Below are positions 3,572 to 51,478 of a stretch of DNA of 64,000 nucleotides, in pieces (positions within the stretch are counted from its first letter, which is position 1; every line of letters begins with the position of its first letter). The position numbers and the translations under genes are program-made. Source of the DNA: Obrimoposthia wandeli (Eukaryota); NCBI GenBank assembly GCA_977020255.1, contig CDROCS010000473.1, positions 682,001 to 746,000 of the forward strand. Reading direction: 5' to 3'. Below the pieces are notes generated by a model, which worked only from the letters and a program-made list of their open reading frames with translations, searched no databases and was not told the DNA's origin.

Positions 3572-4653
3572 ATGACTATGGTAAGAAACTTTATTTTTTA
3601 TTTCTTTATTAATATTTATTTTTTAGATTTCGTGTAACCTGTTTCCAGCCTATTGTGGTGCTTCGACTCCGCATGGAGATAATGTCCGCCTACTATCGGA
3701 CAAAGTCTCATGGGCGAGTATTCTTCGTCTGCCCCTTCTGCAGAACTATGGAAGAGAAGGTGTTTCGAGACTTCTTCGGTGAACATCGAGATCACCTATC
3801 GTGTTTCACGACCAACAACAAGAAGATGGCTATCGTGCAATTGGTGCGCGATTCGCAGGTCGCTCCAGCTCCTGCCTCTGTTCCAGTTGCAGTCTTTCAA
3901 CCCATTTACGGTCCTGTGATTGGTCCTTCTCTCTTGTTTCCTGATTCTGCAGCTGCCTCATATACTCAAATGAATAACAATGAGTGGTTGAATGACATCT
4001 TCCAAGAGGATTTTGAGGAGTTGGCACCAGCAACCTAATTCTCGAACAATTACTGGATGGAAAATATCACCCAGTCAGATTTCGAGATGGAGCAGGTTCA
4101 GTGGAGCGACAGCGGCTGGTTGGAGACCATCTAGGAATCCGATTTCATCTAGTTAACAGACGACAGCTGGATGAATTCCGTCAATGAAGAGGACTTTCAA
4201 CCAGCTACAGTGGGATTGCCATTATTAGATGTTTTTATTACTATTTTCTGACTATTTTTTAAAATGGTAATTATATATATATATATTCCCCCCCCAGGAA
4301 ATACCTTGATACAGTCGTCATCCGCTACGACATCTATGCCTCCCATCGCGAGTGCATACGTCGATGTTTGCACGCCTTAGAGGTAATAATTTTTAAAAAT
4401 ATATTTATGTTTTAATATATTTATTTCAGCAGATTCATCATCCGCGTCCACAACAGTATTTTCAATGATATTAGCTAGTGATGATCGAGTGGCTCCTGCT
4501 TCTACAAGCGCTATCGCCTCAGCATCTGAAGCACCACCATTAGTTGCCTCAGCAGCACTTACTACAGCATCACCTTCCACATCAGCTGCGAGGTTTGTCA
4601 GGGGGAGGTTTGTCAGCAACTGTAAGAAGAATGAGACGAGACCAATTTTTTAA
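3572..4653 (+). pseudogene. Spliced zinc-finger gene with acidic Trp repeats and Ser/Ala/Thr tail, upstream of pPolB (decayed)
   Basis: ATGACTATG then GTAAGA...TTTTAG intron (3581-3626). C-x2-C-x14-H-x2-H motif (CPFC...HRDH). Four W-x-x-x-[IV]-x-x-x-DF repeats at 3985-4200 read through in-frame stops. Further GT-AG AT-rich segments near 4268-4298 and 4383-4428. Homologous to 35332-35798. Confidence 0.6.
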
Positions 4654-11957: not shown

Positions 11958-17413
<5,456 letters not shown>

Positions 17414-18541: not shown

Positions 18542-18660
18542 AGTAGGTGGATGTGTCCGGTCTAATCCACATCCCCCTCCCACCCTCTGTCCTTTAAAAC
18601 TGTGCATGTGTGTGGAGTGAAATTTCGTGCATGTGTGTCGAGTGAAATTTCATGTATGTC
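18542..18660 (+). repeat. Polinton left terminus with fold-back and 25-bp subterminal repeats
   Basis: agtaggtggatgtgt is shared with 44371 and imperfectly with the reverse complement ending at 37996. ggatgtg...cacatcc hairpin. tgcatgtgtgt.gagtgaaatttc repeats recur at about 57722. Confidence 0.65.
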
Positions 18661-18943
18661 TCCATTCCACCCAAAGGGGGAAGGAAGGAGGTACCACCAC
18701 CACAATTTTTAAAAAATTTACTGCGAATCTCAAAAGTGGTTAGAGAAGACCACGGGAATCCATATTGGCCTCGGCGGCTTATCGCAGACGAGATTTTAAA
18801 TAATATATTACTACTATTTTTAAGAAAGATTTTAGATTACTACATGTTAAATATTTAGGTCAGATTTATAAGAGAAAATTAGATCTATATAATTTAGAGG
18901 AGAAAAACAAAATACGAGTCAAAATTATTTTTCAAAATATTTA

Positions 18944-19252
18944 TTAAACATAAAACAACATATTGGCTTCACTCAAAGTCCAGAGAGGCTGCATTTTCCC
19001 GTCATCAGCAAAATATCCATTGAGACGTATTGAGATATTCCATAGTTCTTCATCTAGAATTGGAGCAATCAAATATCCTTGATCATCTTTAAAATCCAGA
19101 CTGGGATCAGTTTCAAACTGGAAACAATTTCCTTCATATACATAATCAGGAATGTAAAATCCCAAAATATTTTTCAATTGATCAATATCATTTGTTGTTA
19201 AAATTTCGATGAGATATTTATTCTCCACCTTTGATATTTTCACAGGATTCAT
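18944..19252 (-). CDS. Polinton accessory protein, IRLxGY..PxW family member A
   Basis: Intact 102-aa ORF with a near-identical intact copy at 58116-58418; motif WNISIRLNGY...PLW. Confidence 0.7.
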   Translation of the reverse strand: MNPVKISKVENKYLIEILTTNDIDQLKNILGFYIPDYVYEGNCFQFETDPSLDFKDDQGYLIAPILDEELWNISIRLNGYFADDGKMQPLWTLSEANMLFYV

Positions 19253-19474
19253 AACTCATATAATTTGACGCCTCTTTAATATATTACATAGTTTTCCTTT
19301 TGAAATTCTTTCTGGATAATAAAAATTTGCTACACATCTCTTATCCATTCTAAAATAAGGAAACTGATTAAAAAAACAATGTTTATAAAAAAATACATAT
19401 ATTTAAAAAATAAAACTGATTTATTAACTGAAAGAAACATAGTAAACCCGATTACAATTTATTACACGCAAAAG

Positions 19475-19957
19475 TTAAAACATATAAATATGAGCACGTT
19501 CAATTTTCCACATAGGCAACTTTGTCCCCATTTCATCTTTCTTGTAACCATAAAGTCGAATTGTTACAGTCCATTGCTTCTTTTTCGGAAATGCATCAAT
19601 ATCAACATATCTTCCATAGTCATCTAGAAATGCTTCATCAGGTCCTCGGATATAAAATTCGTCCTTATTGAAAGTAAAATTCGGAACTGCCTTTTCAAAT
19701 TTCTGTTTAAGATAATGAAAATCTGGTTTTTGAATATTTGATAGATAGTAGCTGAACTTTCTTCTTTCAATTGTCACAGGATTTACTAAAGCAATCAGTT
19801 GAGCCTTCTTCAAGAATCTGACTTTGTATTTGAAATATTGTTTCACTTCTTCATACATATCCTTATCCGATTCTTCAAACATTTCTATATCTTCGTCATC
19901 GCTTAATACTCGTTGGCTATCATCCATCGTTGATAATTGTCTTTGATATGGATGCAT
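19475..19957 (-). CDS. Polinton accessory protein, IRLxGY..PxW family member B
   Basis: Intact 160-aa ORF with acidic N-terminus; motif WTVTIRLYGY...PMWKI; decayed copy at about 58700-59110. Confidence 0.7.
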   Translation of the reverse strand: MHPYQRQLSTMDDSQRVLSDDEDIEMFEESDKDMYEEVKQYFKYKVRFLKKAQLIALVNPVTIERRKFSYYLSNIQKPDFHYLKQKFEKAVPNFTFNKDEFYIRGPDEAFLDDYGRYVDIDAFPKKKQWTVTIRLYGYKKDEMGTKLPMWKIERAHIYMF

Positions 19958-20201
19958 TTACTATGATTTGTCCTCCAATGACGCATTCTTTTATACTAAT
20001 TTCTAACAAAGATATGAATTGGTTAATATAACTAAAGCATTGAATTTGATTGGACTAAATCCATATTAAAAATCAAATTTGATTGGAAGAAATATATCAT
20101 CCAATTATACTAGGTTTGCAAGATAATTACAAGAAACGTGCAATAAAAAAGCAGGTTCAGACATATATAAAGAAAATTTTACAGAATACCATTTTAGTCT
20201 A

Positions 20202-20698
20202 ATGAAACTTGTAAATATAAATTATAAAGCTAGAACAGAAGATGATGTTTCGTACTTACCATTCAATGAATGGAAGCCGAGACAATATGTGGAAAAGTTT
20301 GACAATTTTATAGTTGTTATTTTTCCTACAGTTAGTTTTTTTTATTTTCATATTGAATTCTTTTAGGAAATTGTCGTGTTATGGGATGCAAAATACCAAT
20401 ACTTGGGTTCAATTTACCATTTGGAATTCGAATCACTGCAATACAATCAATCACGATTTCGGCTAATCTTGGGAAACAGATAAATCTTTTAAAAACTGCA
20501 GAGAAAATGAAAGAAGAATGCATGTTTGAACCAGAAATTTTTCCTGCTCTCAGTTATTTGAAGTTTAAACCGCTATGTGTAAATATATTTTCCAGTGGTA
20601 AAGTTATGATATTGGGATTAAAAAATTTTGATTATCCAGACATTGTTGATTTGATTTTAGAAAATATATCTTATTACACCTTGTTATCTTTTCTATAA
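20202..20698 (+). CDS. Compact TATA-binding-protein-like gene, one mini-intron at about 20331-20366
   Basis: Exon 2 encodes INLLKTAEKMKEECMFEPEIFPALSYLKFKPLCVNIFSSGKVMILGLK, matching TBP repeat 2 (YEPELFPGLIYR...LLIFVSGKIVLTGAK). Exon 1 encodes MKLVNINYKA...KPRQY...VVIFPT, continuing as NCRVMGCK, matching repeat 1. The GTTAGT donor is one base out of frame. Confidence 0.75.
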
Positions 20699-20726
20699 AC
20701 AAACCCGTTTAAACTTATTGTTTCAA

Positions 20727-20933
20727 ATGAATAATACTATAAATAGAGACAATGAAGTGGATCGTCTTGCCGACGAAATATTTTCTGTAAAAATTAGGGG
20801 TAAAGAAATTTTATCAGAATTAAAAAATAATGATATAACAAGAGATAACATTGAAATATTGGTTAGATCACACGTTATTCGAGAATTTATAAATCGTACA
20901 CAAGTAAATAAAATTATAGCCAAATATTCATAA
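20727..20933 (+). CDS. Small hypothetical Polinton protein downstream of the TBP-like gene
   Basis: 68-aa ORF from ATG 20727; the 3' half recurs at about 59153-59260. Confidence 0.45.
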   Translation: MNNTINRDNEVDRLADEIFSVKIRGKEILSELKNNDITRDNIEILVRSHVIREFINRTQVNKIIAKYS

Positions 20934-21032
20934 TTTAATTTTTGTATTTCATCTACAATAGCTCTAACATTGTACATTTCAATAAGGAAACTTCTATGAT
21001 AATATAAACAATATTAAAAAAATGAAAGAGTA

Positions 21033-21210
21033 TATGCAATGGAGCTAAATAATAATGCTGTATAATAATGCTGTGGAAGTGAAAGACACATTTCGTATGT
21101 AAATTGTTGCAAAATGAATCTCTTTTCAATTCTAGTTTCAAAAATATTTATTGGCATCATGGTGGAGGAGGGGAAAGCGGGTTAACCAAAACAGAAGTTT
21201 GCGTACTTTA
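21033..21210 (+). pseudogene. Packaging ATPase N-terminal remnant, joined by deletion to integrase
   Basis: Matches 59362-59473 (IIGPIESGKTHF Walker A) and 62931-63000; homology switches to integrase after cagaagtttgc. Confidence 0.7.
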
Positions 21211-21735
21211 AGAGATCGAATAAAAAAGTATTTCACAAAAGAAGGAAATAAAAAATGGATCCTAGTTTTACCTAAAATAATACATGCATATAATCACTCG
21301 GAACATAGAGGTCTCAAGGGAATGAGACCTGTTGATGTTACTAATAAAAATTTTATGGATATTTGGGTGAACAGGAATAAAAAAGAAAACATTAAAAAAG
21401 CTAAATATAAGAAAAACGAATATGTCCGAATTTCGAAAATTAGCTCTACTCCATTTATTAAAAACTTTGATCAGAATTGGAGCGATGAAATATTTTTTAT
21501 AAGTAAAATTGATCAAAAGAGTAATCCAATAATGTATACTATTAAAGATGCTGACAATAATATCGTTCACGGTAAATTTTACGAGCAAGAACTACAAGTA
21601 ATATCAAATAAACCTAGCGTTTTCCGTATTCAAAAAATATTAAAATCTAAGGGTGCCGGTAAACATAAGCAATACTATGTTAAATGGGATGGTTATTCAG
21701 ATCCAACTTGGATATCAGCATCTAATATAATATGA
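21211..21735 (+). pseudogene. Integrase C-terminal half with chromo-like domain
   Basis: RTLRDRIKKYFT, AYNHSEHRGL, QNWSDEIF, GKFYEQELQ, YYVKWDGYSDPTW. Confidence 0.88.
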
Positions 21736-22781
21736 AGTCTATGTATATGGTTTTACCTAGTAACGGATGTCCGAAGACTCAACCAGATAATTACGCTAGT
21801 AGCTTTATTATCGATTGGGAAAATCCTATAAATCTCCAAGGAGAATGGGAAGCGGCTTTAACAGAATTTTCCTTTTATTATTCTCCAATTACTATCAGAA
21901 AAAACTCACATATTTCGTTTACAAAATAATTTGATCATGAAAAATCAATTGAAGCTGTGATTGGGTTTGATAGTAAAAGAAAATTCTATTACAATTGTAT
22001 AGATAAAGAAGTAAAAGTAATATATAGATTTAAAAATCGACTAAAACATTTTTAAAATCCTTTTCAAATTATATTTGGATCTGATAGAGAAGCTCTTCAA
22101 TTCGGTTTTGACAGTGGACATGTAGAGGTATGAAGAAATCTGATATAGCCTCGTCTAAATCGTTTAAAAATGTTCTTGATAGAGTAACAAAAGTGTTTTT
22201 AGTTGAAACGAGACCAAAGTATGTAGTGGAACTGAAAATTTTTTCAATAGATTATAAATTAGATAGTCAAGTGAATTTCTGTAAATTAATACAGAAGGAA
22301 TGTAGTGAATATTTCGATAAATGTGAAACATTAAAAAAATGGTAAAATAACGTTTACAGTAAAGAGCAATATAATACGAGTATTATTTGATGATAAACTC
22401 GCTAAAAACCTTGGTTTAAACAGTAATACCTTTGAAACCCATACAATAAAAACCATAAAAGCTAAAAATAAGGCAAAACATTTAAATGCTGTTAATCATT
22501 TATATATTTATACTAATTTAATAGAACCAACGCTTGTAGGAGGACAGCGAGTTCCACTTTTGAGAACAATATGGATATCTAAAAATGAAACTAGAGATGG
22601 GGACGCTGTCGGTATGTGTATAGATCAACCAATGTATCTTCCAGTTTCTCTCTTTTCTATAAACAATATTGAAGTAAATATTAGAGATGATTCCGAACAA
22701 CTAATAGATTTCACGTACGGGGCTAAGACAAGTTTAACAATACATTTAAGAAAACAAAATGGCGAATCCAGCAATAATTGA
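21733..22781 (+). pseudogene. Minor capsid (penton-like) protein, frameshifted
   Basis: MYMVLPSNGCP...WENPINLQGEWEAALTEF; IYIYTNLIEPTLVGGQRVPLLRTI...MYLPV. Confidence 0.8.
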
Positions 22782-23130
22782 AGCTTATAGTCAAAGCCAA
22801 CAAGGTGGAGAATTACCATATTTTGTTGGTAAACAATATGGATTTGGCTGGCTTAGAACATTAGGTAGATTTGCCTTTCCTCTTTTAAAGAGACTCGGGC
22901 GATTTATATCAAAATTAGGAAAGGATTACCTTCATCTAAGGACAATAAACTAATACCAACTTTTAAGAAGCATGCGCTTGATGAACTTGATAATGTTTTA
23001 CACGAAGTTGCTAATTTGATAAAAAAACGTAAATCAAATAAAAGCCAAGGAGGTACTGGATTTAAAAGTAAAAAGAAGCAAAAAATCAATATAAACAAAC
23101 GTAAGAAAGTTGAAGGAACAATATTTGCAA
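22759..23130 (+). pseudogene. Basic core-like protein, frameshifted
   Basis: MANPAIIEAYSQSQQGGELPYFVGKQYGFGWLRTLGRFAFPLLK followed by a Lys-rich tail. Confidence 0.7.
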
Positions 23131-23131
23131 A

Positions 23132-24360
23132 ATGAGTTGCGCCAAAACTGAATTGTGTATTTTTGATAAACCACTTCCACAAGTAATTGTAGATAATGCT
23201 TCCTTTGAAGAAATATTTCTAGTTAACTCAGTTTCAGGAACCACTTTAACCGATTTAGAATTTAATATTAATGGTTCCAATAGCGAGTATTTAGATTTGA
23301 ATGATACTTTGCTTTATGTACAAATAAAAGTATTAAATCGGGATGGTACTAATTTAGATGAAAATGCAGATGTAACACCTGTAAATTATCTCTTTAATTA
23401 TTTATTTAGTGATGCCATTGTTACTCTTAATAATGTCAAAATTGAAGGTGGAAATTCTTCCTATGCTCATAAAGCTTTGATTGAAAGTCTTTTGAATTAT
23501 AGTACTGATACTCAAAATACCAATTTGGCAACCATTGGTTATGATAAAACGGTCGCAACTCGCAAAGAATGGATTGCAGGTTCTAAAGCTTACGAAATGT
23601 GTGGGACTTTGAGATTGAATTTCTTTGAACAACCGAAATATTTAATTCCCGGTGTTAATGTACATCTTCGTTTGAAACGTAATAAATGGATTTTTCTTTG
23701 ATAAGCACAGACGTTCTGAAACCCAGACTTGAAATTTTGGATGCAAAATTGTATGTTCGAAGAGTTAAAACCGAACAATCAGTTTTAATGGCACATAATA
23801 TAGGAATGGAAAAAAACAATGCTTGTTATCCTATTAGAGAAACTAAACTTATATCCTATTCTTTAGGTACGGGTACACAAGCTTTTAATAAGGATCAAAC
23901 TTTTGGTGATGTAAGATTACCGAAATTCGTTTTAATTTCTTTTCAAAAAACTGCAAAGTATCTAGGAAATTATACGACAGATGCAACTCAATTTGACAAT
24001 CTTAATGTAGGTTCAGTGACACTTTCACGAAATACTGATTATCGCGAAACATATAAAACAGATTTCAAAGGTAACGCTTATGCTTTGGCTTATACGCAAT
24101 CTATTATTCGAAATTTGGGCCAACTAGATAAAAATATAAACAATGGTATTTCTTTCACTGAGTTTAAAAGCAGCTGCCCGTTCTTCACATTTGTTTTGGC
24201 ACCAGACTTTGATATAAACCAATGCCAACTACCAAAGAATGAAAATTTACTACTAGAAATTAAGTTCAATGCAGCTTTATCACATCATACTTCGGTGCTT
24301 ATTTACGGAGTGTTTGATTCTGAAATACAAATCAATAAAAACAGAACTGTCATATTATAG
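23132..24360 (+). pseudogene. Major capsid protein (double jelly-roll, Polinton type), one frameshift near 23690
   Basis: Overlapping ORFs 23132-23701 and 23686-24360; FFEQPKYLIPGVNVHLRLKR, LEILDAKLYVRRVK, NLLLEIKF motifs. Confidence 0.9.
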
Positions 24361-24399
24361 AATGAAGTAAGACATTTTTTAAATTTATATTTATTAATT

Positions 24400-24750
24400 T
24401 TTATTTAGTTCAGCACAAGTACAAGACTCAGCAGAGAAGGTCTTGGGTCATAAATTCAATGGAGTTTATCCTATTGATATGATTCCATTTTTTTCAATCT
24501 GGAGGATACATTATCAATACTCATACTTCGAATTTACCAGGAGAACATTGGATAGCTATTTATGTTAGAGAGTGGACAATACATGTATTTGATCCACTTG
24601 CAATGTATTATCCACACAAACTTGTTTCAACTATTCAAAAAGGACGAAGAAGAGTATTTTACAACAAGATACAATATCAGGATCCTGCGACGAGAAACTG
24701 TGGACATTTATGTATTTTATGGTTATCGTTGCAAAACGATTAGTGTGTTA
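24400..24750 (+). pseudogene. Adenain-like cysteine protease, disrupted
   Basis: FNGVYPID, YIINTHTSNLPGEHWIAIY, and a Gln/Cys segment (QDPA...CG). Confidence 0.75.
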
Positions 24751-25008
24751 TAAAAATAAATATTTTTAATGTTTTATTTTGAATTATTTTTTTAAAATCC
24801 CTAAAAATATAAGGGTAAAATAATAAAAGACATAAGAAGAAATTTTTTTTAATACATTTAATAAAAACAACATAACAATGAAATCTGTCAGCAAAGATAA
24901 AGTCCATCCTAAAAAATGTTTTGAAATAACAAAAAGTTAGAGTCAAGGTGCCATAGGGATCTAAAATTTTAAAAAACTAATCTAAAAAAATCAAAAAGTG
25001 AAACCCGT

Positions 25009-27410
25009 TTAAATTCGGAAGTGTCCATAAGCCAGGCTAGCGTTCTTTTCTACCAAAAAGCGCTTGTCGTCATTACTACTCAAAGCGATGTTGGTTGATT
25101 TATGGGAATACAGTTGATGGGCTCTTGAAATAAATCTAGTTTGCTCAACGCTTTCAATACACCCAGTATCATAAACTTTCATGTATGCCTCATGTGTAAG
25201 ATTGTTTCTTCCCACAGCCTTTGCTCTCATTGAACATGTATTATTATATGTATGTAAACTGTAGCATTTAGGGCGTAGGAAAATACAATCATCATACGTA
25301 ACCTGTCCCTCGCTTTCATCCTTCAATTTCCCGATAATATTCTTTAAACTCATAGAATGTAGAGGATGATTAGCGGGATATTTATGGGTATCTAATAAGT
25401 TGTCCCTAAACATTGCCGGTAATAATTGATTATCTAAACTAACATTCCTACATTCTAAAAAGAAAGAGTCAGTGTCTCCAGCTGCGATTTTGATCTCACA
25501 ATTGAATTCTCGTCGATATTTCTCTAATTCTACGTATTTAAGCTCGTACATTCTGAGTTTAGAAATGTCTAAAACCGTTTGACCTATATAACTCGGTCAA
25601 TTGAGACAAATACTCTGTTTTCCTAATAACACAGCTACCAAGTAATCTGCAATTGTTGATGCATCTGCTGAAAATAATATATTAAATAATTTCTTTACCT
25701 TTGAATTAGGTGGACATTGATGAACAGGCGCTACTGGAAGATCATCTAATTTATCATGTACATTGGAAGGGATTGTTAAGTCAACCTCAACCAAATAGCC
25801 GACGTCTGATGAAACTGTATCAACAGTAGCCAAATCTGTCATCAACTTATTCAACTCTTCCTCATCATAAACCCACTTAAAGTTGGCATGATGTAGAGGT
25901 TGAGTAAGCGCCCACCTATACAAATTATTTATGTCGATGTACAGAATCTCCGTGGATTGATTTTTGACAACATGATGTTTGTTGACAAAAGTCATTCCAC
26001 CGCGTATACCATAATCATACATTGATACATCGTGGGATCTTGCAGTAACTCGATATTATTTTTAAGAGTTTTTATTGCTGTTGCCCATGAAAGACCAAGT
26101 AAACTAAATAAATGCATGGGATCTAGCCCATCTTCTGCTAAAGACTTTACACGAAAGGACTCAAAAACATCAGCTAAAAGATAAATGTTTAACGTCATAT
26201 AATAAAGCATATATTCAAGAAGATTTCGACAATTATTCACCCAAAATGTACGGGCCTCATTATATTCTTGAAGACTTACACTTTCAAATTCAGTTATGGG
26301 TGGGATTTCTGTAATATTTTTTAAATCTGCAAAGGTTTTTGCAAATTTATACGGAAAAATCCCCTTATCATTAACTGAAGCTGGGAACACTGACTGTGTG
26401 ATTGGCCATGCATTTAGAGATGCCGTTAAAATTTTTAAAGACCCGCTCAAAAACTGCAGAGAATCTATGAATCTTAAACTGCAGAATTCAGTATATGCAG
26501 TTAAAGATAAATATTTCTCTGAAGTCTGAGGTATACAAGAAATTTCCCAAGAGCTTAATGTACTCAACGCATATTTAAGTATATGATGCAAATCATATCC
26601 TTTGAGGTTATGAAACACGATCGGAATTCGTGGTTTTTTAGGGAGACGACGGCCAAGGTTACAAAGGTTGCACGCCGCTCCCAAGTATCGCCCCGTAACA
26701 TGATCGTGATCTCTGACTAACTTAGACTGGGTTCCACACAAATAACATAATCTACAAGAAATAAAATTAAGCCAGTCTATGCCTGTTATGATCATTGCTT
26801 GATGGGCATTGAGATCATACCACGGTTTGACAATTGTTGTTGCTAATTCTTCTAATTTTAACATAAAATCTAAAATACAATTTGGAACGGAAAATTTATG
26901 ATACTGTGTAATATTGAGGCCTAAGAATTGTAGTCCTGCCGAAGCCGGTAGGTGAATACTCTCATACTGGTCGTGCAATGCTAAAATTGACTCAAAATCT
27001 GCATACACCCTGAATTCCACGGGTATGCATTTTGCCCAATCCCTGAGTTTTAAATCCTTATCCTTAGGCATGCTGTATAGCGTATTGTCATCAGGATTCA
27101 GTGAACATAATGTCAGATGTTTGCTGTAAGAGAGCTCGGATCGGAATCCATGCAAACATCTATGACACCACTTACACCTTATCCTAACCGGTAAGGCTCC
27201 ATTATCTAAATTTAGAAGACGATCTAAATTAGGAATTGGAGCATAATGGAATTTTTTATTATGTTCATGCAAAATTAAGTTGACCTGAGTCCCCTCATTT
27301 TTGCTCCTATAAATAACATCTATAAAAGGATTTTTAAAAATTTCTTCATCTGTTACATTAACTGGGATATCAGTATTGTATTTGTTATTATTATTATTAT
27401 TATCAAACAT
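25009..27410 (-). pseudogene. pPolB (family A), 5'-truncated with frameshifts and deletion
   Basis: ORFs 25992-27410, 25597-26022 and 25009-25551: YADFESIL, RDHDH, HNLKGYD, FIDSLQFL, GIRGG, DINNLY, GDTDS, GKLKDE, RPKCYS, DDKR. Confidence 0.93.
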
Positions 27411-28889: not shown

Positions 28890-29297
28890 TTATTCATAAA
28901 CTCTAAATGCTTCAATTATTTTCCATATAGGTATTATCAATCCAGAGGGCCCGATCTTGTATCCTTGAATTCTGATTTCGAGAATCCATTCTAATCTAGG
29001 AGGAGGTCCATCGAATATTGTTCCATTCTCCTGCTTGAAAGTGGCATTTTGTCCCTTGATTATGAATTTGTTTTCCTGAAGCTCATATTTGATTCCGAAT
29101 TGTATGAAGATAATATTGATTCTCTCTTTATCCACTGAAGTCAAATTTGATACCTGCAAATCAAATCTATTCGGCTCTATGTTGATAGGAAAAATAAAAT
29201 TATAGTTGTGACATTTCTTCAAAAAGTGCATATCATATCCATGGTTTTTGTGCATAGACTGATATAGCTTTTCCAAATTCGGATTCTCGAAATTCAT
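28890..29297 (-). CDS. Polinton accessory protein, IRLxGY..PxW family member C
   Basis: Intact 135-aa ORF; WILEIRIQGY...PIWKI aligns by eye with members A and B. Confidence 0.7.
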   Translation of the reverse strand: MNFENPNLEKLYQSMHKNHGYDMHFLKKCHNYNFIFPINIEPNRFDLQVSNLTSVDKERINIIFIQFGIKYELQENKFIIKGQNATFKQENGTIFDGPPPRLEWILEIRIQGYKIGPSGLIIPIWKIIEAFRVYE

Positions 29298-29364
29298 ATT
29301 TACAATTAAAAGTTTAAATATTCAATTGTTTATCCTTTGAAGCTCGATTCTAATTAGCTGATAA

Positions 29365-29883
29365 TGTTGTTTATATAAATCGCTTCGTTTTAGTCATATC
29401 CTTGAAGGGTCAAAGCCACACCAGTACCGGTTCAAGTGTGATAGTTATACTATTACAATTTTCAAATCTGGTAATTTATTTTACATTTAAGTTTTAATAT
29501 AATTTAGGAACATGTCGAATAATGAAGTGTAAAGCTGCGCTAGATGAAAGAACTCTTCCTTTCAAAATCAAAATCGAGAGAATTCCATCAATCAGTGTCA
29601 GTACTAATTTGAAAAAACCGATAAACCTGAACAAGATGAGTAAGAGTATGGGATTGGAAGCAGTTTACGAACCAGAAATCTTTCCTGGGCTACCATATAT
29701 CAAATACAATCCTCTATGCGTGAACATTTTTGAAAGCGGAAGGTGACGATACTTGGGGTTTAGGCCCTAGAATATGAATATCTTATTGAATGTATTTTAT
29801 TTAATATACATCTTCATACTTGTGTTTTTTCTTTCCTAAACAAAGACATTAAAAAAAGATGCAAAAGTTGCAAAAAGTTGTAA
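29365..29883 (+). pseudogene. Second TBP-like gene, intron 29471-29507, frameshifted near its 3' end
   Basis: Splicing yields KPHQYRFKCDSYTITIFKSG-TCRIMKCK in frame with ...VYEPEIFPGLPYIKYNPLCVNIFESG; a shifted frame continues VTILG. Confidence 0.75.
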
Positions 29884-30183
29884 TGTTACTAAAAATAGAT
29901 TTCTCCTTGTTTTCTGAATTATAAACAATACTCTTATAGCTTTAAATTTGTCAATAAAATGGAGAAACTCGATGAAGCAGCAGCGGAGAAAAATTGAAGA
30001 AATTTTTGAAGATGCTGATAAAGAAGAAAATAGCGATTGGATTTCTTAAATGCTCTGACTTTTATAGAACCCATAATAGCTAATGCTTCCAGTATGGAAA
30101 TGTCTAATATGATCCACCTTTTTGATAGTTTGTTTAGAACTAGATTTAACCAACTTAGTGTGGAAAGATTAAACTAAACCCCG

Positions 30184-30600
30184 ATGAGTGAGATTTTAGT
30201 AAATCAATTATATATTGGAAATTATCGCGATGGGTTTGATGAAATTGAGCTTCTAAAATCGAAATCCACACATGTAATAAATACATCTCCAGTGGATAAG
30301 ATATCTTATAAGGAATTAATGTATACATCGATCTTTGTAAATACGAAATTAGGAGAAACAATATTACAATATTATAAACAGACTAATAATATAATTAAAG
30401 AAACCATCAAAAATAGAGGGAAAGTTTTAGTATGTGGTCATTATGGAGGTTTACATGCTGTTTGTATTGTTATTGCATTTTTATCTCTTTCAATGGGTGT
30501 TAGCTCTGCATGGAATTTTGTTAAAGCTAAACGTAGTATTGCAACGCTTAATGCAACTTTGCTTAATCAAATACGTATTTTTAATCATTATCATACATAA
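30184..30600 (+). CDS. Dual-specificity phosphatase-fold protein with degenerate active site
   Basis: SEILVNQLYIGN, THVIN, GKVLV, IVIAFL, FVKAKR and LNATLLNQI follow the DUSP pattern; HCxxGxxRS is replaced by CGHYGGLHA. Confidence 0.8.
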   Translation: MSEILVNQLYIGNYRDGFDEIELLKSKSTHVINTSPVDKISYKELMYTSIFVNTKLGETILQYYKQTNNIIKETIKNRGKVLVCGHYGGLHAVCIVIAFLSLSMGVSSAWNFVKAKRSIATLNATLLNQIRIFNHYHT

Positions 30601-30662
30601 ATTGTATTTCTCATGTTTCTATCATTATCCAATCAGATTTTAATTGTATAGTATACAAACAG

Positions 30663-30914
30663 TTGACGTTTTGCTCCAACTTCATTATCATGTTCAGTCG
30701 CATTTATTTCAAGCAAGATGTTGATCGGGCGGTTAAGAGCTTCATCTCGAATAATTTTATAGAAGAAAATGTCCTGATACTCATCGAAGCAACGGATCTA
30801 CCGCTGGAGGAGCATGTACGAAGACTGATTCACGATAAGGCAGTCAATCTTCTCATTCTGGGCTACAATAAGAAGAAAGAAGAGATGAAAGAAGAGAAGA
30901 GGAGCTTTTTCTAG
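30663..30914 (+). CDS. Hypothetical Polinton accessory protein
   Basis: 83-aa ORF between the DUSP-like gene and the ATPase. Confidence 0.35.
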   Translation: MTFCSNFIIMFSRIYFKQDVDRAVKSFISNNFIEENVLILIEATDLPLEEHVRRLIHDKAVNLLILGYNKKKEEMKEEKRSFF

Positions 30915-31015
30915 GATAAGTGTTTTTTATTGTTTGTTGCTCGATGTTTCGTAATAAAATATTTTAATTAACTTTATCTTATAAACATTATCCCAATACT
31001 AATATTTTTTTTAAT

Positions 31016-31625
31016 ATGGACTTATAGAATAATTCGGTTTTTCAAATTGTATGGCCTAGTGGAAGTGGGAAAACTCTTTTTATTTGCAAGTTACTACAAA
31101 ATAATAAATACTTTAGATTTAAGTTTAATAAGATATATTGGCATCAGAGTAGAGATGGAGAAGCAGGTTTAACCAGTAAAGAGTTTAAGAAAATCAAAAA
31201 TATAAAAGTAATTAAGGGATTCGATGATAATTGGTCTGATCGATTACAGCAACGACTTGTACCAAGAAGCAAATAAAGAAAATGATTTCAATAATTTATT
31301 CACTAAAATAGCCAGACATCGTGAAGTAACTGTTATTTTCATTACACAAAATCTATTTCACCAAGGTGGAAATCATAGAACTCGTATCTTAAATGTGCAT
31401 TACCTTGTTCTTTTTAAGAATCCGCGTGATCAGACTGCTATTGATTTTGTTGCAAGGCAAGCTTTCCCGAATAATATAAATTACCTGATTGAAGCATTTC
31501 AAGATGCTACTACCATTCTTCACGGGTACATTTTTATTGATTTTACCCAAGATTGTCCCGATGAGCTAAGATTTAAATCTGATATATTCAACCCACAATC
31601 AAAGAAACCAGTTTCCCGAAGATGA
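31016..31625 (+). pseudogene. A32/FtsK-like packaging ATPase, disrupted
   Basis: PSGSGKT Walker A; ARHREVTVIFITQNLFHQG, NVHYLVLFKNPRD, GYIFIDFTQ. Confidence 0.9.
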
Positions 31626-32020
31626 GTTTTAAGAAGGAAGTTATTAAACCTGAAGTCAAGAAATTGATTAAATCGGTTTTAAGAGCAAGGAAAATGGTTG
31701 CTAAATATTCAAATAATAATAAATCTAGGAGTATTCCATATTTCAATTCTCTTATGCAGGCGCCCGCTATTCGACGTCCGACTATTCTTAAATAATTTCC
31801 TACTTTTGTAATATATGATTTACTTAATATGGTACAAAAAATAGTTTCTGGTAAGGTATCCATTAAGACTAAAATGAATCGGCATAAGAAACCTCTTCAA
31901 GCCAAAACACAAGCCGGTAAACATAAGTTGCTGTATAAGCAAAGCAGAGGATTTTTAGGATTTCTAGTACCGATTGTTAGCTCAATAGTTGATTCACTCG
32001 CTAGCAGATTAATAAAATGA
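31622..32020 (+). pseudogene. pX-like basic protein
   Basis: C-terminus KQSRGFLGFLVPIVSSIV parallels 9781-10014. Confidence 0.55.
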
Positions 32021-32077
32021 AGATTATAAACATGAATTTTAATCAATAAAATGAATTTTTATGGGTTCGCTTCCAAC

Positions 32078-32450
32078 AATTCCTAAATTAAATATAAAAA
32101 TCAAATCAAATTGTTGTAATGGAAAAAGTATGGTTCGATCCAAGTCATCCCGTTGGTTATACTGGTTTTCAAAATTGGCAAGAAAGGCAAGGAAAGAGAA
32201 GAAAGAAACTCAGACGTGTTTGAAAAAGCAATTAGCTTACAGCTTAAAGAAACCGATGAGACGCCGGTTTCCAACGAGATTTTCCGGTTTTCATACAAGA
32301 CGAGCGGCCCAAATGACTTATTTTAAGCTGATTTGATGGAGATGATTCCGTATGCGAGTATTAAGGATGGATATAGATATATTTTAACTTGTGTTGATGT
32401 CTTTAGCAGATTTGCACGAGCTATTTCGCTAAAGTCCAAGTCCGCTACTG
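32078..32450 (+). pseudogene. Integrase N-terminal fragment
   Basis: MEKVWFDPSHPVGYTG; YRYILTCVDVFSRFARAISLKSKS, then an abrupt switch to MCP sequence. Confidence 0.8.
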
Positions 32451-33477
32451 ATGGGGGAGCTGATCTGGATGATGATATGGATATTAAATCAGCTAATTTC
32501 ATGCTTTATACTCTTTTCAAGGACGTGATTCTCAGTCTCAATAATGTGAAAGTTGAGGGTAATAATACAAGTTACGTTCATAAGGCTATGATTGAAACAT
32601 TACTGAATTACGGTAATGATACGAAATTGATCAATCTTGATGCAATTGGGTTTGATGATGATGAAAAAAGAAGAACACCTTCGATTGCGAAATCTAAAGT
32701 ATTGTCACTTTGCGGGAGTCTCCATTTAAATTTTTTTAAGCAACCAAAGTACCTGGTGTAAGTGTCCATATTCGAATGAAGAGAAATTCAGTAAGTTATA
32801 GTATTGTTTGCGCCGATACTATTAAATCAGCAATTGAGATTACGGAAGCAAAGTTACTGATTCGTAGTGTAAAGGTGGAACCATCTGTACTCGTTGGGTA
32901 TAGAATAGGGTTGGAGAAGCAGAATGCATGTTATCCTATAAGAAAAACTAATCTTGTTTCTCATGCTATCCCCACAGGAGCACTTTCTTATTACAAGGGT
33001 CAGGTTTTCAGGGATATGCAGCTCCTCCCAAACTTTGTTTTAATTGCTTTCCAAAGCACTTCCACATACGGAGGTGACTCTAAAAATAAGGTTTCTCAAT
33101 TTGAATATATGAATGTGAATTCAATCAAACTAGCACAAAATATTGGTTATCAGGAAACGTATACGAATGACTTTGAAAATAATGAATATGTGTTTTCTTA
33201 CGTGCAATCTTTATTTAGAAATCTTGGTCTCTTGGATAAGGATGCTACTGTTGGTATATCAATGACCGATTTTAAGGACAAGTATACGCTGTTCACATTT
33301 GTTCTCTCTCCTGATTTCGATATTAATCAAACTCAAATCCGTAAACAGGAAAATTTGAAATTTGAAATCAAATTTACGAAAGCACTTGAACAACCTACGA
33401 ATATTATAATCTATGGAGTATTTGATTCTGAGGTGCAAATTACCAAGGTGGGTACCGTACTAGTGTTGGGTTGTTAA
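32450..33477 (+). pseudogene. Major capsid protein (family B), 5'-truncated
   Basis: LFKDVILSLNNVKVEG, FFKQPKYL, AIEITEAKLLIRSVK, ENLKFEIKF; divergent homolog of 23132-24360. Confidence 0.88.
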
Positions 33478-34392
33478 TTAAATAATTAATTTTTGTCAAT
33501 TTAATTTGACATTTTAAAAATAATCTAAAATGCCCACAATTAGGGAGGTTTTTCAAATTCAGCCTCCGACGGGGTGGTCCCGTTTCGCCTTGCCAGGCTC
33601 TTCAGGAAGGCGGCTAGTTTTTTGATAAGAGATAAGAAAGTGGTTTTGACCACCAAAGATTTTTTCCGCCCAGCAATTGCAGCAGATGCGGCGGCGGTCT
33701 GCCCTTTCTCGGCCAGTTCCGCAATCCACAATCACCCCAGTACTGCTGCCTTCCCACTCTATCCGGATCTCTGAGCGAATTTGATCTGCCTCCACCTTCC
33801 TTCCTCATCATCCGTTTCTGTCATCCCAGTCGACCAGCGTCATCGGCAACATCATCATCATGCACACAATTTCGGCCAACATGTCGTCATTTCCTGGCTG
33901 CCAGGATTCAATGTGCAGTCGGCATGCTGCAGATGATAATCTCCACGGCTGATTTTCCCCTGTCGCTATGAACTGCAGTAACTGCCACATATGGATGGGA
34001 CTACCATACAAGCCGGCCTTTGTGTGCGGCACAGCCACTGCCCAGATAACATGTTCCCTGTGTCCTTCCTCTCAGACACAATCCGTGTGTGTCTGTGTTC
34101 TCTAATTGTGTGTACATGTTTTTTTTTTGTGCTGCCTCAATGTGGTCAGAGGGACTGACGGGAAGTGCACAAGTGTCGTGTCGACTGTGCTACACTGTTT
34201 CTGTCGAGTTACAGATTTATTGATTTTCCCCGCACATTTGTCTCATAAAGATTATCCCACTTGTTCGTGTGCATTTGGCTCTGTGTGTGTGATATATTTG
34301 TCTCTCGGATCCCTATATAATGACAGTGGTGGATATTGACAACACAATAATAATACGACTGATACCAGGATACAATAAATCTGCAGGTGGAA

Positions 34393-34530
34393 ACTCTAAA
34401 ACAATTTACTACTACAGTTTGAAAACACGAATTTAGGATACTCTAAAACAATTTACTACTACAGTTTGAAAACACGAATTTTGGAAACTCTAAAACAATT
34501 TACTACTACAGTTTGAAAACACGAATTTTG
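34393..34530. repeat. Three tandem copies of a 47-bp unit
   Basis: actctaaaacaatttactactacagtttgaaaacacgaattt at 34393, 34440 and 34487. Confidence 0.95.
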
Positions 34531-34789
34531 ATGTTATTAGAATACAATTTTTAGAAGATAATTTAAGACAATTTTTATATGAATAAATTATTTTGCCGGA
34601 ACTTTTACTGAATATCATTGAGTGCATTCGATTGGATCCAAAACTTATATTTAAACTAACACTAGTATAAACATAATTACGATAGCAAGAAGGCATAAAT
34701 GAAGTAAGTCTGTTTGAAATAATCAATTAACATATAATCTAATTCGCTCGAGATAGCAAAAAACGGGAGAAAACTACTCGGATCTCGTT

Positions 34790-35075
34790 TCAATGGAGTC
34801 TAAAGTCTCGATCATATCCCCTCATTAACTCGCCCAGGCGGATATTTGATCAATACACATTTATCTAATTTACGTGGAGATCATTGGATTGCAATACATT
34901 TTAAAGAAAAATAAATATTTGTTTTTGACCCCTATGGGGTATATTACCCATCTAAATGAGTATATACAGTACTTGACTCTGGAAAGAAAGTACATTTTAG
35001 TAAGAAACATTATCAGAATACTTTAACACAGTCATGCGGATCACTCTGTCTATTATAGTTAAAGCATAAACAATC
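34790..35075 (+). pseudogene. Adenain-like protease (family B), disrupted
   Basis: GGYLINTHLSNLRGDHWIAI, FVFDPYG, YQNTLTQSCGSLC. Confidence 0.8.
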
Positions 35076-35331
35076 TTAAATAAAACAAAAAAAATGTCTG
35101 TTTATTTTATTGATTTTGAAGCTTTCTTTGGATTATTTAAACTACTTACCATAGAAAATAAATATTAAAGAAAAATATGCTACTTACAAGTAAAATCAGC
35201 ATTTTCTATTAAAATTTACTGATTGGATTGAGAGTTTTGAATCAATCTCATTGGATAAGTACTACTTTGTAAATAGTATATAATGAAACAGGATTCATTC
35301 AATAACTAACCTTTTATAAATGATATCGAGA

Positions 35332-35798
35332 ATGGTAAGAATTTTGATTTATTTTTGATTATTTTTTAGAACTGTAACATAAACAAGCAACTGCGCTATG
35401 AAGTAAGGCATGTTGATTGCCTAAGAAGAATGGAGGAGTATTTCAAAAAGAAATTCAACGAACATACATATTATATATGTTCAAAATGTCAAACGAGCGA
35501 GGAAATAGACTGGAACAGCTTCTGCGACAGACATCGAAAACATTTGGCGCACTTCCAGAATATTGGGAAAATGGCGATTTTCAAGAAATGCCCACAAAGC
35601 AGTATGTATTTTTATGGACAATCTACTGGAGCTCCTTCTATCGACTCAACATCAACTGCTGCTGCTCCATTAGCTGCTTGTATGCCTGTGGCGGTGTCTA
35701 CACCATTAGGTAGCGCCGTAGGTGGTTCTGGCCCACATAAGCTAAATTTAGCGGGATGTCTACATCCGCTGGTGTTAGGAAGCGTAATATGCCGCTAG
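35332..35798 (+). CDS. Spliced zinc-finger gene upstream of pPolB (intron 35335-35369)
   Basis: ATG, then GTAAGA...TTTTAG, then exon 2 in frame with CSKC-x14-HRKH and KMAI; Ser/Thr/Ala-rich tail. Confidence 0.65.
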
Positions 35799-37619
35799 TT
35801 GGAGGAGCCCTAGTGAAGCAGGGTAGGATGAGGAATGTGGTTAAGAAGTGGGGGTTGAATGGAGTTTATTGCTCGATTTCATTATATGTTAAAAATAAGA
35901 ATTTGGTTAATATCATAGTACTGCAGGATCTTCTGGATGCCTTAAGAGACGTTGTAGATCAGTTCGAAAGCTGTAAAATTCAGTTTGGGCTACGGTACAG
36001 TTCTCGAATGGGACTGATACTAAGCAATGGGTTGTTTCCAATAAAGCAATCCCTTTTTCTCCATCGTTTCTTAAAGATGGATCCTCGTTACTGGCTTCGA
36101 AACTCAAAGAGTATTCAGAGCATGGTAGTAACTGGTCTGTGGATCAGTTACTAGAAATTTACTTCACGGTTACCAAGACTAGTAAAATTAATTACCTGCA
36201 AGGGCATTCATATATTCCTTCTCCAGAAGGTATTGTTAATGCGGTAATTAATGTCAGAAATATAGGGAATAATTTATGTTCATATTTAGTATTTTAGCTT
36301 TTTTGAAACGTAATTTATTCCCTAGAAATAGGTATAGGCCTTTAGGATATGAGCCGTTCTTGAGCGAACTTAATTACGACGAAAGCGATATGCCATGAAA
36401 TTAGCTAAAATTCCGCGATTTGAGAGGGAAAACTCGGAACTGTCCATCAATGTTTTCACCTATAATCATATAGGGAATTTGCCGCTTGGAACGGAAATTT
36501 ATAAAAATCCGTATATTGACGTGATTTACCGCAGTAAGAATTCTAGTGGCCAGCTCATAAATTTAATTCTTTTGGAGGATAATGTTAGGTTTCATTATGT
36601 CGCAGTTCCTGACTTGAATAGGCTTTTAAATATTCGTCGGAGATTTTCAGCCATTATTCAATGTAAGTGGTGCTATAAGTGTTTGCACGGTTTTAGGCAC
36701 ACCGAATCATTCGATAAACACGTACCACTATGCACCGAGAATATAGAGAATACCACGCTATATACCATGCCTGAGGAGAAACATATAGAGTTTACGGATT
36801 TTTCCAAAACTATTTCTCCTCCATATGTCATATATGCTGATTTCGAGGCGATGCTTACCCGGCATGGGATTCGCCATCAGCAGCATCTCCCAATAGCAGC
36901 GGGTATGCTGTTATCATCAATTAAGTCTGCTCCAATGCAAGATTACTCCTTTTTAACGGGGGAAAAATGTGTAGTGGATTTTCTGAAGAATATCAAGACA
37001 ATCGCAAAGGAGACTGTACTTCCGTGGTATAATCAGCATTCACAAACAGTTATGCAGCAGCTAACACTGGTGCAGCTAGCTAGTTACAATGCTGCAACTA
37101 CTTGTTATCTCTGCAAGAAACGTTGCGTTAGTAAGGTTAGGGATTACGATCATATAAGGCTTATATTATAAGCGGTGAATTCTTATGAGCTGCCCACTCT
37201 AGGTGTAATTTATCCCGCCGGATAAGTCATCTTTTCCTAGTTGTTTTCCATAACCTGAGAGGCATGCCTTGAGCAAATTCCCGCACTGGTCCATTGGTAT
37301 CATTCCCCAAACTATCGAGAAGTTCCAGGCAATGATTGTACGCTTCGACGTGATTACCATCAAATTCATCGATTCGCTACAGTTCCTGAATATCAGCCCC
37401 GACCAGCTAGTGAAGAATTTTGCAGATGTTCTTATTACGAAGACAGTGTTCCCGGCTCATCTCATAGGAGGAAAAGGGATATTTCCCTATGACATGGCAA
37501 TATCAGAGACTGCTCTCAGAAACATTAGCAGTCTACCACCTAAATGTAAATTAGAAATCACAGACGCCTATTTTCTTAAAAAAACATTTTTGAAATTTAA
37601 AGTTTTTTTAAATTTTTAG
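35756..37619 (+). pseudogene. pPolB (family B), N-terminal half, disrupted and truncated
   Basis: SGWS-like segment, YIPSP, LSINVF, CYKCLHGF, YADFEAML, RDYDH, FIDSLQFL, KGIFPY. Confidence 0.88.
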
Positions 37620-37775
37620 TTTTTTTAAATTTTAATTTTTCGAAATTTTAGATTTTTAAAAATTTTGAAAATTTAAACAAAAAATTTTTTAAATCCCCCA
37701 AAATTTTTTTTTGAATTTTTGACCTTGAAAATTTGAATTAGACTTGCACAAATATCGATGCGTTTAAACAAAAGA

Positions 37776-50112: not shown

Positions 50113-51478
50113 ATGTTAGAAGAATCTAATGCTTATGATATCGAATTAAGACTTAGAAATTTTCTCAACACTAATCGTATTAGACTATGTGATCCTCCAT
50201 ATACAGTTGACAACAATGCAGGCGAGGAAATCGATGTAATTTTTTCTTTCTTTTATATTATTTAAAGCGAAAATTTTAGGTGCTTGCATCTTCAGCTAGC
50301 GATTTACTTGGACTATCTTTCGAAACAATCAGAAATGGACTCGTTATATTGAGAGAGAAATCTATTAACAGTCTGACAATCATAGAAAAGTTTAAAAGTA
50401 ACAGAATAGTTACTTTAAAAGTGCATGTGCCGAAATCGAAAGAGACAGTCAGTGTTTTATTGATAATAACATTATTTTTGCATTGATAAAGTTTACTTTA
50501 GAGTTGAGTGATTTTGAAAGCGAGACGGGAATGTCACTTTCCCGCAAAATATCTGACATGATCGGACTAGCTCTTGACAGTATCCGAGTGATTTTCCGCG
50601 GTAAAGTTGTAACAGACTCCAGCTGTACAGAACAAGGAATAAAAGTGAGGTTTGTCTATAAATGCCTACTTTGAAACGCTTCCTATTTAAGTTTCTTGCT
50701 AGACCTTATAAAAGAATAAAATTGAATCTTTGCAAAATTTTTGCTCATATTTATTATATTAAAATATATTTATTTACTTATTTGTTTGTTTAAGGTAAAA
50801 TTGTAACAAAAGCAACTGCATTTATTAAAAATTGAAATGATTAATTACTTTTAATTATTTAATAACTATTTTTAGATAAGTATTTTGACCTTGGTTTTTT
50901 TAGGAGGTTTTATATATCTTTTCAACTTTAATAAATATCAAACTAACTTCATTAAGTAGTTTTATTGCAATTGAACATGGTTTTTCAAATCTATGAAGCC
51001 TCTAGCAACGTAGAATTTAAACAGCTTTGTTGTGTAAATATTTAATATTTTATTTATATCTGATAATGTTTGTGGGGAGCTAACATTATTTCTGAAAACT
51101 ATTTAGAATAATATTTAGAGATTTGTGATTTACACTTCGAGAACTCCCTTTGTAGGTGGAAATAATTTTTGGAAGGTTAAGATTTGCTTAAGATTTATTT
51201 TTAGACAGCTTCTTTTAAGGTCAGTTAGTGTAATAATATTCTACTTCCGTCAACTATTATATAAATTAGTCAACTTAGCAAGTTTTTACCCTCCTTGAAA
51301 CATAACCTGATTTGTAATCTTTGCTATACATACGATAATATAGACTGGAAATTAATGCAGAACAACAGCAAAGTTATGGTGTTGGAAATCGGACGTCCGG
51401 AAGGCCAGGAAAGTCAGAAAGTTTCACAGCTCAACAAAAGTCGCAACATGGCCGAATATTTATCGAAACGCGTCATAG
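50113..51478 (+). CDS. NUB1: Host NUB1-like gene, 5' exons (50113-50235, 50280-50447, 50492-50644, 51361-51478); 3' part not found
   Basis: LRNFLNTNRIRLCDPPYT resembles NUB1 LTQFLREDRIQLWKPPYT; UBL-like segment TGMSLSRKISDMIGL...IRVIFRGK...EQGIK/NNSKVMVLE; phase-compatible GT-AG introns, two of them 44 nt. Confidence 0.8.

Follow-up and report, generated by a model that had tools for sequence, protein, structure and literature searches.

Polinton genes have been described as intron-free, and inserts that depend on splicing matter for that view. Intact vertebrate Mavericks have no introns according to the available portion of the report (PMC8097293), and in nematode Mavericks the core genes are said to be intronless while the cargo genes contain introns (10.1101/2022.07.12.499685, available text). 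Endogenous viruses have been treated as intron-free and Polintons have been mined with prokaryote-style gene callers that assume no introns (PMC10120064, in the part accessible). Group I introns occur in PLVs (PMC12220804, accessible part). A TBP homolog is an accessory gene named in figure legends for the MELD viruses (Starrett et al., PMC8502044; 10.1101/697771), and the available parts of these two sources mention no intron or splicing for it. Dinoflagellate eupolintoviruses contain introners, which are introns of the spliceosomal type within Polinton-like elements; most of these were acquired as recent mobile insertions once the element had integrated (PMC12166617, excerpted text). Mirusviruses, unrelated giant viruses of protists, have spliceosomal introns of about 80 nt in core genes, which the accessible text takes as a sign of nuclear reproduction (PMC12768974). 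In the article texts searched, no description of spliceosomal introns conserved in the core genes of animal Polintons was found; PMC10748475, PMC6431247, 10.1101/2024.03.25.586562 and 10.64898/2026.10.13.758929 were among these texts and contained nothing to the point.

The elements described here are small integrating elements of an animal with predicted introns of 34 to 47 nt. Unlike the vertebrate and nematode Mavericks, they bear conserved GT..AG inserts in the protease, pPolB and TBP-like genes. They share the TBP-like accessory gene with the MELD viruses and intron-like inserts with the dinoflagellate elements, in contrast to which the TBP-like insert is fixed at one site and kept across diverged lineages.

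The window (G000:C473:682001-746000, 64,000 nt) comes from an AT-rich assembly of 1.35 Gb, in which the host TBP matches animal TBPs, the best animal matches being nemertean, flatworm and mollusc proteins. It contains two decayed Polinton copies (Table 1). The segment 25995-27410 matches Pfam DNA_pol_B_2 (E 4e-9), the protein-primed PolB. For the other core genes the relative L111 served as the bridge: its integrase matches rve (E 1e-12) and the window pieces are 54-58% identical to it; its packaging ATPase matches Pox_A32 (E 2e-6), with window pieces 68-74% identical; and its capsid protein has an Atlas score of 0.98 to a double jelly-roll cluster in which 65% of the members carry PF21738. 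The capsid piece in the window is 57% identical to L111, and the capsid has no direct Pfam match. The protease-like gene gave no match in the Pfam search, either in the window or in L111; its label as a putative adenovirus-like protease follows from a His-Trp motif and from its position behind the capsid gene. Terminal inverted repeats (TIRs) and 6-bp target duplications were both present in three of the eight sister stretches examined (copies of families J, H and K); at the two window copies they were looked for and none were seen. In gene content, AG-start TIRs, target duplications and a length of 13-16 kb the elements resemble the animal Polintons/Mavericks (Eupolintoviridae, "adintoviruses"). 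In the B element a dual-specificity phosphatase gene (30178-30600, Pfam E 1.8e-11) separates the TBP-like gene from the ATPase gene, and a host DEAH-box helicase gene (12994-17413) with introns of about 130-740 nt adjoins the left end of the A element.

Table 1. Positions of Polinton copies, inserts and comparison introns in the window
Feature	Position	Strand	Remarks
A-type fragment, pPolB start-adjacent insert, 46 nt	3581..3626	+	A-type fragment
A-type fragment, pPolB internal insert, 47 nt	4383..4429	+	same fragment as the 3581..3626 insert
Decayed family A Polinton copy	18542..27410	.	AG-start left end, TBP-like, ATPase piece, integrase piece, capsid-like genes, protease-like, pPolB
Family A TBP-like exon 1, 43 codons	20202..20330	+	copy broken at exon/donor boundary
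Family A insert, 36 nt GT..AG	20331..20366	+	34-40 nt in other copies
Family A TBP-like exon 2	20367..20698	+	Pfam TBP, E 2.4e-12
Family A protease-like insert, 42 nt GTAAG..TAG, phase 2	24367..24408	+	two bases after ATG
Decayed family B-side Polinton copy	28890..37620 (approximate)	.	TBP-like, phosphatase, ATPase, integrase piece, capsid-like, protease-like, pPolB
Family B TBP-like exon 1 remnant	29410..29470	+	upstream part including the start missing in the window copy
Family B insert, 37 nt GT..AG, probable phase-1 intron	29471..29507	+	
Family B TBP-like exon 2 to premature stop	29508..29746	+	Pfam TBP, E 1.9e-7; copy broken
B-side protease insert (equivalent of the family A one)	34704..34742	+	acceptor decayed in the window copy
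pPolB insert, 35 nt GTAAG..TAG	35335..35369	+	just past the pPolB start
Host intron, 44 nt (comparison)	50236..50279	+	seen in the sequence
Host intron, 44 nt (comparison)	50448..50491	+	seen in the sequence

The preliminary description had placed a 37-nt GT..AG insert in the B gene and a 36-nt one in the A gene, splitting the same codon, and both were found where it put them. Uninterrupted natural proteins (P0001-P0003) read IF(P/R/E)TGNCR(V/I)MGCK across the site; P0002, for example, is continuous through it: IFPTGNCRVMGCK. Since these proteins span the motif, the insert site can be placed inside the Gly codon of IFxxG-xCR(V/I)MG, in phase 1, for both families. Removal of the insert from the B gene restores the frame locally as proposed, but not for the gene as a whole: in the window copy about 350-420 nt of the 5' region including the start are gone and exon 2 stops after 78 codons. 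The A copy, correctly described as out of frame, is one of four out-of-phase copies among 30 family A loci chosen by exon-2 similarity. The in-phase G|GT donor is present in 26 of the 30 and the AG acceptor in all 30; the in-phase inserts are usually 35 nt long (18 loci), the others being 34 nt (2), 36 nt (1), 39 nt (3) and 40 nt (2). A weaker donor at 20335, suggested earlier to rescue the A frame, is unneeded because the break in the window copy lies where exon 1 meets the donor and 26 of the 29 other copies are in phase. The family B insert measures 37 nt at the 30 loci examined; 23 are in phase with GT and AG, six have a damaged donor and one a damaged acceptor. The GT..AG ends are not a product of chance, since shuffled insert letters reach them in only 34 (A), 20 (B) and 47 (L125, a metagenome locus described below) of 20,000 trials; the test is meaningful only for these three, which were found without requiring GT or AG. 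The ends, the T-rich 3' part, and the joining of conserved coding frames in the phase of the uninterrupted relatives are those of a U2-type intron.

Copies were counted genome-wide with exact anchors separated by a 36-52-nt spacer and compared with the same anchors without an insert. Family A anchors gave 6,757 matches with the insert and none without; family B anchors gave 324 with it (one of the 100 matches listed was due to chance) and none without. In 51 of the 100 B matches listed (hand count) the acceptor AG is replaced by TG. Three B matches without the AG were fetched, and their frames were broken and core genes were absent nearby; such matches fit decay after loss of function, yet they count against the simple picture. 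They belong to a non-autonomous B derivative (L242-L244 on C50, C80 and C233) with broken TBP-like frames, which makes up about half of the B matches listed and on C50 forms a 5.3-kb tandem unit. A degenerate pattern that demanded GT and AG gave 3,025 further matches, mostly not family A, from which lineages B', B'', H, I, J, K, M and N were recognized; their inserts are 36-40 nt long and differ in sequence. This genome also has multiplying families that are uninterrupted (C, D and E), with 232 matches, of which five of the 100 listed were insert tails; a fourth "intronless" motif in this search proved to be such a tail. The degenerate search also led us to reject the idea that insert bearers avoid GT after the acceptor. 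The Polinton load is thus very large (at least 6,757 A and 3,025 further matches in 1.35 Gb), and families without the TBP-like insert give about 220 matches by patterns that differ from those used for insert bearers and are not strictly comparable. Outside this genome, the 43 closest of 80 metagenome loci were scored; 42 are uninterrupted and one (L125) is split at this site by a GT..AG insert of 40 nt. L125 is a Polinton by gene content and has the gene order of L111. No close relative was found among the viral contigs searched. The uninterrupted motif occurs in at least 84 of 156 database proteins, a set in which gene callers favor intronless forms.

The TBP-like insert very probably functions as a spliceosomal mini-intron that was acquired in the element lineage, a reading drawn from sequence comparison. 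Among nine lineages (36 pairs, both exons) pN is 0.03-0.37 versus a mostly saturated pS of 0.39-1.01, and the GT..AG ends persist while the interiors turn over. Reading through the unspliced insert leads to a stop or a frame change in eight of the nine lineages. The predicted structure of P0002 (pLDDT 96.8) has the TBP saddle fold (Foldseek E 2e-9), its best Foldseek matches are TBPs (TM 0.6-0.7), Pfam TBP matches both window exons 2, and exon 1 contributes the strands E2-12, E29-32 and E37-40. It is very unlikely that the inserts stay unspliced, either as AT-rich insertions that broke the gene or with exon 2 translated alone from an ATG five codons past the acceptor. About half of the B matches listed lack the AG, the 39-nt insert of family M contains no stop and permits read-through, and several database proteins start at the Met five codons past the acceptor, all of which would suit unspliced inserts; against this, exon 1 is conserved between lineages to the same degree as exon 2, the splice ends outlast the interiors, exon 1 supplies strands of the predicted fold, and two of the Met-start proteins cluster with members of 153-154 aa. 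Four read runs behave as DNA (none of the nine joints listed over an A junction matches the insert ends) and have no bearing on splicing. TATA-like boxes lie upstream of 11 of 14 TBP-like starts, a raw count. The size likeness to the introns of a host NUB1 gene holds in part: two 44-nt host introns exist, but at 34-41 nt the inserts of the elements fall below the lengths of the three measured host mini-introns (44, 44 and 47 nt). The NUB1 name is that of the preliminary description, and the Pfam search gave just a weak ubiquitin-like match (E 0.003).

How the intron arose was examined with two sets of trees, which require three to four changes of intron state. From the rooted trees, the intron appears to be a gain in the element lineage because the distant relatives are uninterrupted. 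In the TBP-like tree of 55 rows an A + B clade has support 78/66 and one clade of bearers is not rejected (p-AU 0.06). With the distant rows dropped (39 rows, bootstrap not settled), four separate bearer groups stand in a polytomy that leaves A + B unresolved; for the TBP-like protein a single clade of all bearers is not rejected (p-AU 0.25). The core-gene tree, with one copy per row, has a B clade (100/100), A beside the intronless C/D/E (83/73, weak), K basal, and L125 among intronless contigs (95/99). An earlier core-gene tree with an A + B clade (98/99) and J beside A was withdrawn, as six rows mixed copies and the clade vanished with one copy per row. On core genes a single clade of all bearers including L125 is rejected (p-AU 1e-8), while an A + B clade (p-AU 0.26) and a clade of all host-genome bearers (p-AU 0.11) are not. 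We consider it probable that A and B share the intron by descent. The earlier proposal that the intron predates the A/B split is plausible and partly supported, as A + B is not rejected, but the clade is not recovered on core genes and the two interiors are no more alike than shuffled ones (the observed identity was reached by 176 of 300 shuffles).

A tentative alternative, on balance rather unlikely, is repeated gain of the intron at one site (in A, the B clade, K and L125), helped by a latent donor, or its transfer between elements by swapping of TBP-like cassettes. The core-gene tree needs four changes, of which its starred branches force at least two, and the position of L125 among intronless elements, the chance-level identity of the A, B and L125 interiors, and the presence of G|GT(A/G) at the insert site in 12 of 33 uninterrupted relatives all speak for it; such a latent donor at the insert codon could favor repeated gain. 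Against it, the core genes reject neither an A + B clade nor a clade of all host-genome bearers, and a single origin is not rejected with the TBP-like protein; AT-rich 37-mers also lose their likeness quickly, and intron loss is common. Capture of a host TBP gene together with its intron has next to no probability as the source and is already largely refuted, even though introns are kept in nematode Maverick cargo genes (10.1101/2022.07.12.499685, available part). The comparison of intron positions proposed earlier gave no host source: host TBP and its paralogs are uninterrupted at both homologous Gly codons, host TBP has its introns elsewhere (one of 47 nt and one other), the element protein is only about 21% identical to host TBP, and the distant relatives are uninterrupted. 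The host set comprises a divergently oriented pair of TBP genes with 1.2 kb between them (L196 on C238, L063-L066), more diverged paralogs on C968, and, on C60 and C1092, two TBP-like genes that are uninterrupted. Nor is the insert at all likely to be an introner, a small mobile intron landing elsewhere too, for which the dinoflagellate eupolintoviruses offer a precedent (PMC12166617, accessible part). Copies at unrelated sites were not seen: of 159 exact matches to the B insert 30 were fetched, 28 with both TBP-like flanks and two with one, and because all 30 have at least one such flank the B insert is not regarded as an introner. The inserts of different lineages are also unrelated in sequence.

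The TBP-like gene is not the only insert-bearing gene, as inserts in the protease-like and pPolB genes show; the intronless core ORFs described for Polintons hold here for the ATPase, integrase and capsid genes, which are uninterrupted in well-kept copies. In the protease-like gene ATG and two bases are followed by GTAAG..AG, an insert of 37-42 nt found in 15 of 26 matches and always in frame. Among these 15 are C, L111 and L119, in which nothing interrupts the TBP-like gene. Four of the remaining matches are decayed or truncated, and seven outgroup contigs begin directly with Met. In pPolB a start-adjacent insert occurs in several lineages. Another insert, of 102-543 nt, splits the FSIPG glycine in J, B', M, H and an element on C231; it was looked for and found absent in A, C, K, N and L111. 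One A copy has a chain of three in-phase pPolB inserts (47, 75 and 44 nt). A general intron scan missed several known inserts and gave doubtful calls and served for leads only; 99-nt pPolB "introns" in K and N were regex artefacts. With GT-AG inserts in protease and pPolB too, use of the spliceosome looks clade-wide. The preliminary claim that these elements use the host spliceosome is thus well supported at the sequence level and extends to both genes.

The element genes would be transcribed in the nucleus by host RNA polymerase II and their pre-mRNAs spliced, the insert presumably being removed by the host major spliceosome. An unspliced TBP-like mRNA would stop early or leave the frame in all of the nine lineages examined but M, and an unspliced protease mRNA would have no in-frame start. 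After splicing, the TBP-like product of about 150 aa may act as an element-encoded promoter-binding factor serving element promoters, as its modeled fold suggests. The clade likely took up splicing early, given the shared protease insert, and introns would then have been gained, lost or swapped gene by gene. Start-adjacent introns might, speculatively, raise expression or avoid the silencing of intronless DNA (cf. HUSH, PMC8770142, accessible part). If the introns are real, the core genes of an intron-bearing clade would be missed or called broken by gene callers that assume no introns, and the conserved introns would be direct evidence of nuclear expression by host polymerase II. One genome that holds, in thousands of copies, sister families with and without the same intron offers an unusual natural system for the study of intron gain, loss and splice-site selection. 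A wider scenario, which we think unlikely, is that an animal Polinton clade came to require host splicing for its protease, polymerase and TBP-like factor, that host-sized introns at the start codon let its genes pass as host genes and escape the silencing of intronless DNA, and that repeated gains of the TBP-like intron at a single latent donor helped its bearers reach about 10,000 copies versus about 200 for the families that lack it.

Some inserts and neighboring stretches depart from the common pattern. In a B' element (L299 on C82) the pPolB insert is swollen to 543 nt by internal tandem repeats, with its ends intact. Family K (L304-L250 on C3) has an in-frame stretch ending in LRGG at the pPolB N-terminus, which we assume to be ubiquitin-like. 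In a family C element (L194 on C1632) with an uninterrupted TBP-like gene, a GT..AG stretch ends just upstream of the pPolB start and is a possible 5' UTR intron. In L111 a 43-nt GT..AG insert (1745-1787) joins two ORFs of an accessory gene upstream of the TBP-like gene.
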